Below, one piece after another: positions 3,001-5,621 of a DNA stretch of 5,621 nucleotides; position 1 is the stretch's first letter, and each line of letters opens with the position of its first letter. The position numbers are program-made. Source of the DNA: a virus (taxonomy: Duplodnaviria > Heunggongvirae > Uroviricota > Caudoviricetes); the IMG/VR virus record IMGVR_UViG_2667527849_000012; one strand, given 5' to 3'.

Positions 3001-5621
3001 GGGATGCGGCGGCCTCAAAAGAGGCAGCGAAATCATCAGAAACGAACGCATCCTCGAGCGCCAGTAGCGCAGCTTCCTCGGCAACAGCGGCAGGAAATTC
3101 CGCGAAGGCGGCAAAAACGTCAGAGACGAACGCCAGGTCTTCTGAAACGGCAGCGGGACAGAGCGCCTCGGCTGCGGCAGGCTCAAAAACAGCGGCTGCG
3201 TCGTCTGCCAGTGCCGCGTCAACAAGTGCCGGGCAGGCCTCAGCCAGTGCCACCGCCGCCGGAAAATCGGCAGAAAGTGCTGCATCGTCCGCTTCAACAG
3301 CCACAACGAAGGCTGGCGAAGCCACTGAGCAGGCCACGGCAGCAGCGAGGTCAGCTTCCGCAGCGAAGACATCCGAAACGAACGCGAAAGCGTCGGAAAC
3401 CCGTGCAGAATCCTCAAAAACGGCTGCCGCATCGTCCGCCAGTTCGGCGGCGTCATCGGCATCATCGGCGTCTGCTTCAAAAGATGAGGCGACCAGACAG
3501 GCGTCAGCAGCGAAGGGCANCAAGTGCCGGGCAGGCCTCAGCCAGTGCCACCGCCGCCGGAAAATCGGCAGAAAGTGCTGCATCGTCCGCTTCAACAGCC
3601 ACAACGAAGGCTGGCGAAGCCGCTGTACAGGCCAGCGCAGCAGCGAGGTCTGCTTCCGCAGCGAAGACATCCGAGACGAACGCGAAAGCGTCGGAAACCA
3701 GCGCAGAATCCTCAAAAACGGCTGCCGCATCGTCCGCCAGTTCGGCGGCGTCATCGGCATCATCGGCGTCTGCTTCAAAAGATGAGGCGACCAGACAAGC
3801 GTCCGCAGCGAAGGGCAGCGCCACGACAGCATCCACGAAGGCGACAGAGGCAGCTGGCAGTGCGACGGCGGCAGCACAGAGCAAAAGTACGGCGGAATCC
3901 GCGGCAACGCGCGCCGAGACAGCGGCAAAACGGGCAGAGGATATTGCATCCGCCGTGGCGCTTGAGGATGCGAGCACGACGAAAAAGGGGATAGTACAGC
4001 TCAGTAGTGCGACTAACAGCACTTCCGAGTCACTGGCGGCAACACCAAAAGCCGTTAAGGCCGCGTATGACCTGGCTAACGGGAAATACACCGCACAGGA
4101 TGCAACGACAGCACAGAAAGGGATAATCCAGCTAAGCAGCGCGACCAACAGCACGTCTGAAACGCTGGCGGCAACGCCAAAGGCAGTAAAAGCAGCCAAT
4201 GACAATGCTGAGAAACGTCTGCAGAAAGATCAGAACGGTGCGGATATCCCTGGCAAAGACACCTTTACGAAAAATATTGGTGCCTGCCGTGCCTTCGGTG
4301 GGTCAGTAAGCACAACAACAGGAAACTGGACGACTGCACAGTTTATCGAGTGGCTGGATTCTCAGGGAGCATTTAACCATCCATACTGGATGTGCAAGGG
4401 TTCCTGGTCTTATGGCAATAATAAAATCATTACTGATACTGGCTGCGGTAATATTCATCTCGCCGGAGCTGTCATTGAAGTAATGGGGATAAAGTCAGCG
4501 ATGACGATCCGCATTACCACTCCGACCACATCCAGCGGTGGCGGAACAACCAACGCCCAGTTTACCTATATTAATCACGGAACAGATTATTCACCTGGCT
4601 GGCGAAGGGACTATAACTCCAGAAATAAGCCAACGGCATCAGAGATCGGGGCGCTACCGTCAGGTGGAACAGCAGTATCATCAGTTAATCTGGCTTCAAA
4701 AGGTCGGGTAGCCGCGCTGACAGACAATACGCAGGGGGCAGCAGGTCTTGAGTTATACGAGGTGTATAACAACGGATATCCAACAGCGTATGGAAATATC
4801 ATTCACCTGAAAGGGATGACAGCCGTTGGCGAAGGTGAGTTACTCATCGGCTGGAGTGGTACAAGCGGTGCTCATGCTCCGGCATTTATTCGTTCACGAC
4901 GGGATACGACCGACGCAAACTGGTCGCCGTGGGCGCAGCTTTACACCTCGGCTCATCCTCCTGCAGAGTTTTATCCAGTCGGTGCACCAATCCCGTGGCC
5001 ATCAGATACCGTTCCGTCTGGTTATGCCCTGATGCAGGGGCAGACTTTTGACAAATCTGCTTACCCGAAACTTGCAGCCGCTTATCCGTCAGGCGTGATC
5101 CCTGATATGCGTGGCTGGACGATTAAGGGCAAGCCCGCCAGTGGTCGGGCCGTATTATCTCAGGAACAGGACGGCATTAAATCGCACACCCACAGCGCCA
5201 GCGCATCCAGTACGGATTTGGGGACGAAAACCACATCGTCGTTTGATTACGGCACTAAATCCACGAATAACACCGGGGCGCATACGCACAGTCTGAGCGG
5301 CTCTACAAGTTCAGCTGGGGCCCACCAACATAGTCAGACTGGGCCCAGAACGAATAGCGGGAGTCAACCTACTGGAATGTTTCCGGCAGGGAGTACTCAA
5401 GTTAGCGGGACTAATCAGGTTGGTATCAGTGGCTCATTAACCAGTGGCACCTCCCAATGGGTAGGTAAATCATCTTCAGAAGGAAACCATACACACTCAC
5501 TGTCCGGCACAGCAGCATCTGCGGGTGCACACGCGCATACTGTCGGTATTGGTGCTCATACGCACTCTGTTGCGATTGGTTCACATGGACACACCATCAC
5601 CGTTAACGCTGCTGGTAACGC

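Follow-up and report, generated by a model that had tools for sequence, protein, structure and literature searches.

The distal part of the reading frame studied here (positions 4210-5621 of the window, that is, of the whole 5,621-nucleotide stretch that was analysed) very probably encodes the distal third of a side tail fibre protein (Stf) of the lambda type, from an E. coli lambdoid prophage. To judge from its sequence, it is a member of the known T4 gp37/lambda Stf family of collar-needle tips (PF07484 and PF03335; PDB 2XGF), and every family feature that can be read inside the window is there: similarity to gp37 811-1026, a collar, seven His-x-His (HxH) motifs and a divergent tip between the stems. 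Both the tip family and the sequence are already known, the last 217 residues being 100% identical to a public database entry annotated as a tail fibre protein. What sets this tip apart from its relatives is a 52-residue cassette between the third and fourth HxH motifs, which is an uncommon, uncharacterised allele.

The identification is carried by a direct match to the T4 gp37 tip. When the distal window protein, completed with 17 C-terminal residues borrowed from a near-identical gene, was compared with the PDB by phmmer, chain 2xgf_A was recovered with E=7.5e-83, query residues 254-487 aligning with chain residues 28-242, from window position 4969 onward. In the 2XGF alignment the seven HxH pairs of the window fall one-to-one into the columns of the gp37 HxH pairs, and all 14 histidines are invariant in a five-way alignment of the window protein, the Stf proteins of Z1323HEC0016 and PhiR68_2, lambda orf-314 and T4 gp37. 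By tblastn, identity is 61-63% to T4 and 68% to lambda orf-314, and PHROG 295 (‘tail fiber protein’) is matched with E=1.9e-116. The original prediction had likened the repeats to the metal-coordinating motifs of the T4 gp37 needle, and had suggested a comparison with known receptor-binding fibre tips; the comparison leads straight to gp37, with 14 histidines shared with T4 and lambda and all seven pairs in register, and metal binding would follow by analogy. The trimeric needle of T4 gp37 carries seven iron ions, bound by seven HxH pairs (PMC6957217, PMC11705849; for HxH-iron coordination, PMC11705849), and the domain limits and the LPS/OmpC-binding tip have been described (PMC6957217). Those limits, transferred through the phmmer alignment with 2XGF, give the following map of the distal fibre.

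3521-4209, + strand: Ala/Ser-rich shaft, then two Phage_fiber_2 repeats (~3973-4200; PF03406, E=1.7e-37, 2 stretches)
4210-4671, + strand: module A, a globular fibre domain common to Mu S' (gp52), P1 Sv' and P2-type gpH (PDB 8JU3 match, tblastn)
4672-4968, + strand: module B, a second fibre domain common to the fibres of P1 S (C+ orientation), Goslar, SSU5, Fels-1 and Vibrio phages (tblastn, PHROG)
4966-5181, + strand: first part of the collar, equivalent to T4 gp37 D10 811-881, with the Pfam Collar core at 4981-5124 (PF07484, 2XGF alignment)
5182-5331, + strand: descending half of the needle stem, equivalent to T4 882-931, with HxH 1-3 at 5185-5193, 5281-5289 and 5323-5331 (alignments)
5332-5487, + strand: variable tip cassette between HxH 3 and HxH 4, 52 residues (identity drop relative to the flanks)
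5332-5469, + strand: tip subdomain, equivalent to T4 932-959, 46 residues against 28 in T4 (2XGF alignment)
5470-5619, + strand: ascending half of the needle stem, equivalent to T4 960-1009, with HxH 4-7 at 5488-5496, 5530-5538, 5557-5565 and 5584-5592 (alignments)
beyond the window end, + strand: collar return strand, equivalent to T4 1010-1026 (from relatives)

Composition marks the passage from shaft to distal domains: the 229 shaft residues include 74 Ala, 44 Ser and 29 Thr, and 3523-4209 contains no Cys, no Trp and two Tyr, as opposed to three Cys, eight Trp and ten Tyr in 4210-4968; the segment originally described as Cys/Trp/Tyr-containing (4210-4970) does have these residues. The tail-collar-like domain placed at 4975-5130 is close to a Pfam Collar match at 4981-5124 (PF07484, E=1e-12 to 4e-12; 46-48 bits against a cut-off of 24). 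Scans of 4210-5621 for Rfam families, repeats and open reading frames gave no Rfam family, no tandem repeat and no sizeable opposite-strand frame, only short ones.

The gene is cut by the window edge, as had been proposed. Its frame is open to 5621, the last full codon in the window corresponding to T4 residue 1009, the last residue of the stem; judged from a 98.9%-identical gene, the part beyond the edge amounts to 52 nt, with 17 codons and the stop. That gene belongs to Z1323HEC0016 (WP_338933567.1), in which the region forms the 3' part of an intact gene of 983 codons and is 98.9% identical over its full length. The missing 17 C-terminal residues, AENTVKNIAFNYIVRLA, are present in four relatives, PhiR68_2 and Z1323HEC0016 among them, and also in lambda. 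The C-terminal return strand, ...ENTVKNIAFNYIVRLA followed by a stop, lies beyond the end of this window and can be read in PhiR68_2, Z1323HEC0016, lambda and T4. A complete stf would here be expected to end ...AGNAENTVKNIAFNYIVRLA, and on this comparison the truncation is trivial: 17 invariant residues and a stop.

A tfa chaperone gene was predicted to lie downstream, outside the window, and a stop followed by tfa is indeed what every close relative holds, as read from the relatives' DNA and not from this genome. In PhiR68_2, Z1323HEC0016 and the BH100N prophage tfa overlaps the stf stop, the Z1323HEC0016 copy being frameshifted. The relatives' tfa product is a Caudo_TAP protein (PF02413, E=6.8e-43), and the Tfa of PhiR68_2 shares 95% identity with lambda Tfa and 30% with T4 gp38. 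Gene order in Z1323HEC0016 is J - lom - stf - tfaQ - pin at a Qin-type locus (ydfK, ynfT, ydfJ), and J - lom - stf - tfa is found again in phage PhiR68_2 and in the prophage of strain BH100N. Since tfaQ is frameshifted in the nearest complete genome, some carriers may be defective.

What distinguishes this tip from those of its relatives? Across the collar and the first stem the window protein shares 82% identity with T4, 89% with lambda and 94% with PhiR68_2, and from HxH 4 onward (5488-5619) the figures are 70%, 89% and 98%. Between these flanks, at 70-98%, identity in the cassette (5332-5487) falls to 15% for T4, 25% for lambda and 33% for PhiR68_2, whose Stf is near-identical to the window protein except between HxH 3 and HxH 4. 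The same stems carry about a dozen cassette families, 32-53 residues long, among the 120 best homologues of the C-terminal 217 residues, and exactly seven HxH motifs occur in 104 of the 121 sequences formed by these homologues and the window. The window cassette has its closest counterparts, 37-44% identical, in E. fergusonii and E. coli cassettes with a common FPxGxT core. Of 5426 complete E. coli genomes 25 contain the cassette DNA, and blastn at 11-base words finds it in none of 50,697 phage records; a text search of the literature with three cassette peptide strings returned no match. The original prediction took the entire 1.4-kb distal region to be the host-range determinant. That idea survives for the cassette between HxH 3 and 4, where identity is 15-33% against 70-98% in the flanks, and falls for the rest of the region. 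We interpret the cassette as the predicted receptor-contacting distal pole of the fibre. Whether so rare a 52-residue sequence recognizes a receptor other than the OmpC/LPS-core sites of T4 and Ur-lambda is a more tentative matter, to which we would give a little less than an even chance; if it does, a new specificity would be added to the swappable gp37/Stf tips used for host-range engineering.

Three other readings of the region have to be weighed against that of a T4 gp37-type tip on a lambdoid Stf, which no observation contradicts. Could the HxH motifs be a chance by-product of a low-complexity stretch rich in Gly, Ser, Thr and His, with no structural role? The compositional bias of the region invites the question. 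A motif scan finds exactly seven motifs, within the limits first reported (5185-5592), starting at 5185 (HTH), 5281 (HTH), 5323 (HQH), 5488 (HTH), 5530 (HAH), 5557 (HTH) and 5584 (HGH), and they account for all 14 histidines of the last 217 residues. Seven motifs were reached in none of 100,000 residue shuffles of these 217 residues, the shuffle mean being 0.83; the 14 histidines are invariant from lambda to T4 while adjoining residues vary; and the equivalent positions hold iron in a crystal structure (2XGF; PMC6957217). The alignment with 2XGF, the invariance of the histidines and the shuffles together rule out chance, to which we attach a negligible probability. The Pfam Phage_fiber model (PF03335), a 14-residue repeat, also covers the HxH region, with 35.9 bits against a cut-off of 20, in 5 stretches. 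An AlphaFold2 monomer model of 4969-5619 has a pLDDT of 48.8 and a pTM of 0.18 and is uninformative for an intertwined trimer. So poor a model is as expected for an obligate metal-bound trimer, and it neither supports nor opposes the assignment; because of this, homology to 2XGF stands in for structure prediction of the needle.

The domains ahead of the collar raise the question of an invertible host-range switch, in which the distal part would be one arm of a segment of the Mu G or P1 C type and Pin would invert it, so that one or another fibre C-terminus is put in frame with a constant N-terminal part. Module A begins with a conserved 18-residue junction motif that adjoins the Sc/Sv junction in Mu, and it matches PDB 8JU3, the Mu tail fibre S/S', with E=2.9e-72 (residues 183-333 against window 4219-4671). 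By tblastn it is 73% identical to Mu S', 82% to P1 Sv' and 82% to a P2-like H, so that 4219-4671 is 73-82% identical to the region past the Sc/Sv junction in Mu S' and P1 S/S'. An AlphaFold2 model of 4210-4968 has pLDDT values mostly of 72-93 at residues 31-140, with low to moderate confidence in module B, and in a Foldseek search with this model 8JU3 was the sole significant PDB match (E=3e-20). Module B, compared by tblastn with 75 phage records, is 72% identical to P1 S, with SSU5 a more distant relative alongside Fels-1 (58%) and Vibrio phages (48%), and it belongs with PHROG tail-fibre families (E=1e-42 to 1e-44). A Pfam Gp34_trimer hit in 4210-4968 (18.4 bits) lies under the cut-off of 27 and was discarded. 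Both modules have homologues in the variable parts that invert in Mu S' and P1 S/S', and a Pin-type serine recombinase gene directly follows tfa in PhiR68_2 and Z1323HEC0016. Against an invertible segment stands the absence of inverted repeats bracketing the 3' part of stf plus tfa, both in the PhiR68_2 locus (2800-9400) and in the Z1323HEC0016 locus (4400-8900). In both relatives, moreover, the gap between tfa and pin is only ~100 nt and holds no second, oppositely oriented pair of fibre end and tfa, and the recombinase itself is beyond the window. With neither inverted repeats nor an alternative fibre end in the two relatives, this reading was rejected; we consider it very improbable. In Mu and P1 the modules lie within the segment inverted by Gin or Cin and are followed by a different receptor-binding end, whereas in the window they would act as internal spacers before a gp37-type needle. 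The BH100N prophage has the same shaft, collar, needle and cassette, with unrelated sequence from the junction motif (~4210) to 4969. Because 4210-4968 is replaced in BH100N between an unchanged shaft and tip, it behaves as a swappable block, and by homology it is made up of two exchangeable fibre modules of the Mu S'/P1 S type.

Somewhat less improbable, and still unlikely in our estimation, is that the region is a decaying remnant in a defective, Qin-like prophage, with a tip homologous to working tips and no working fibre made here. The nearest complete genome does carry the gene at a Qin-type locus (ydfK, ynfT, ydfJ) next to a frameshifted tfaQ; the 3' end of lom in the window has a frameshifting deletion of ~80 nt; and the stf frame is discontinuous across 3520. 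Yet on the + strand the frame (position mod 3 = 1) stays open for 2,099 nt, from 3521 to the window edge at 5621, with the collar and all the His pairs intact; it is 98.9% identical to an uninterrupted CDS of 983 aa; and, the cassette excepted, the same gene is present in the isolated phages PhiR68_2 and PhiR29. The discontinuity, for its part, looks like an assembly join rather than a mutation. Runs of N at 1150-1170, 2211-2231 and 3520 make the window a set of four pieces and not a continuous sequence, and the collar and HxH region lie wholly within the fourth (3521-5621). A single N at 3520 separates piece 4 from piece 3, which the start of piece 4 overlaps by ~297 nt with 11 mismatches and in another reading frame. 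Pieces 1 and 2 both end in the very 48-49 nt with which piece 4 begins, and pieces 2 and 3 both start at the equivalent of position 111 of piece 1. In piece 3 the prophage tail fibre N-terminal domain (PF08400) is recognised with E=3e-72, the same sequence recurring in pieces 1 and 2, and the 5' copies differ by 14-30 substitutions per ~1040 nt. Given the shared piece ends, the common starts and the few substitutions, the three ‘paralogous’ 5' ends are probably alternative branches of the assembly that were strung together, each a prophage paralogue or a strain variant, and not a tandem array. The tip-bearing piece is joined in frame to none of the three N-terminal pieces, whereas stf is continuous in relatives. 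Only one distal end is present in the window, and therefore differences between the tips of paralogs are not readable from it.

Taking the region as the distal end of a lambdoid Stf with a T4 gp37-type tip, we propose a mechanism by homology to T4 gp37 and Ur-lambda Stf (PMC6957217, PMC12617516, PMC11705849); trimer formation, metal binding, dependence on a chaperone and receptor binding are all attributed by analogy with these proteins. Three chains would come together in one fibre, in which the Ala/Ser-rich shaft leads into two globular modules (4210-4968) and then the collar (4966-5181), whose missing piece would be the 17 C-terminal residues just past the window. Into the collar a long needle would be inserted, each chain running down (5182-5331), forming the tip (5332-5469) and passing back up (5470-5619). 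At each of seven levels one HxH per chain would meet on the axis, six histidines holding one metal ion (iron in T4), and these sites may rivet the intertwined chains to one another. At the distal pole, the tip is envisaged to make a reversible first contact with an outer-membrane receptor; T4 uses OmpC, LPS or both in this way, and Ur-lambda uses OmpC (PMC6957217, PMC12617516). Such a contact would speed adsorption ahead of the step in which the central J fibre binds a receptor of its own. Folding is expected to need Tfa, encoded immediately downstream. Host range could be altered when recombination between the conserved stems, acting as handles, replaces the cassette that separates HxH 3 from HxH 4.

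What does this add to the picture of the family? The gp37/Stf collar-needle tip is a textbook case of mosaic tail-fibre evolution and already a chassis for host-range engineering. The useful product of the analysis is a set of module boundaries (4210, 4672, 4969, 5332 and 5488), at which relatives exchange modules. In addition, an uncommon tip allele is flagged as a candidate for receptor-specificity testing; beyond annotation the significance is small.

Comparison with Ur-lambda Stf (orf-401/orf-314 in lambda PaPa) places the window gene closely. The two are one and the same gene at an equivalent locus, J - lom - stf - tfa as ordered in the window's relatives, with the PF08400 N-terminal domain that is found in window pieces 1-3, and its collar and stems are 89% identical. 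Lambda differs in having one extra HxH (HQH) and an extra SFDYGTK repeat, in a cassette that is 25% identical, and in not having the Mu S' and P1 S modules arranged in this way. OmpC is the receptor bound by Ur-lambda Stf, which resembles the gp37 tip (PMC12617516); that OmpC specificity is not transferable to the tip allele of the window. The T4/lambda family of receptor-binding proteins spans >200 phages, with divergence centred on the specificity region and an assembly gene adjoining the fibre gene (PMC9659904).

T4 gp37 shares with the window the order of collar (D10 in T4) and then stem, tip and stem of the needle (D11), with the collar return strand following in the window's relatives, and its C-terminal 17 residues are nearly the same as those of the window's relatives, with T in place of the first A. 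The downstream chaperones are also related, T4 gp38 being 30% identical to the Tfa of these relatives. The two part company in the tip subdomain, 28 residues in T4 against 46 here and of unrelated sequence (15%), and in the body before the collar, which consists of D3-D9 in T4 and here of a lambdoid Stf shaft and Mu/P1 modules, again unrelated. T4 is a myovirus, and the window tip comes from a siphovirus-type prophage.

Closer to the window, a partial match to the 1412-nt region is found in 3837 of 5426 complete E. coli genomes and a full-length match in a handful, at 98.6-98.9%. E. coli prophage Stf genes at 98-99% nucleotide identity cover all of 4210-5621, and the Stf genes of PhiR68_2 and PhiR29, at the same 98-99%, cover 86-87% of it; the PhiR phages differ from the window in having another cassette, of 48 residues and 33% identical. 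Z1323HEC0016 Stf carries the same cassette as the window and has one Phage_fiber_2 repeat, as against the two present here.

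The fibre region of a prophage in E. coli BH100N shares its shaft, collar and needle with the window, and also the rare tip cassette (the variable segment between the third and fourth HxH motifs), but an unrelated block of ~170 residues stands in place of the window's ~250-residue Mu/P1-type block (4210-4968).

L005:2502-5342, fibre region of the BH100N prophage, E. coli

This difference is a clean natural module swap, with borders at the junction motif and the collar start. The shaft varies in repeat number. Two Phage_fiber_2 repeats are found in the window (3973-4200) and in phage PhiR68_2, whereas the E. 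coli Z1323HEC0016 prophage gene, which is 98.9% identical to the window region, has one, a difference of 44 residues of shaft.

In the PhiR68_2 (L001) and Z1323HEC0016 (L002) loci, the fibre assembly chaperone gene tfa is followed by a recombinase gene, outside the window.

L001:6625-7215, strand opposite to tfa, Pin-type serine recombinase gene
L002:8130-8720, strand opposite to tfa, Pin-type serine recombinase gene

Neither inverted repeats nor alternative fibre ends were found beside this gene in either locus, and 2.5 kb farther along L001 there is also a tfa fragment of 61 aa. These features together suggest a remnant of a former invertible segment.

What does the window itself represent? 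N runs at 1150-1170, 2211-2231 and 3520 split it into four pieces, and the 5' end of stf, the side tail fibre gene, is present in triplicate within 1-3520. The copies are near-identical (14-30 substitutions apart per ~1040 nt) and share a common upstream start base, equivalent to position 111. A real tandem array of stf 5' ends seems disfavoured by this shared start, by pieces 1 and 2, whose ends are identical to the opening 48-49 nt of piece 4, and by the 297-nt overlap of pieces 3 and 4, which contains 11 mismatches and a frame change. The four pieces look instead like branches of an assembly graph or repeat contigs joined by scaffolding.

The 3' end of lom (Ail/Lom outer-membrane protein gene; 1-106) carries a deletion of ~80 nt relative to L001 and L002, which is flanked by short CTGGCG repeats and shifts the frame. 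The stretch that separates lom from the ATG of stf (at 171) holds a hairpin followed by a T run, which resembles an intrinsic terminator and is conserved in L001 and L002.

About 133-160, with further copies near 1193-1220 and 2254-2281, GC-rich hairpin and T run (GCCCGCC-GGTTCA-GGCGGGC-TTTTTT)
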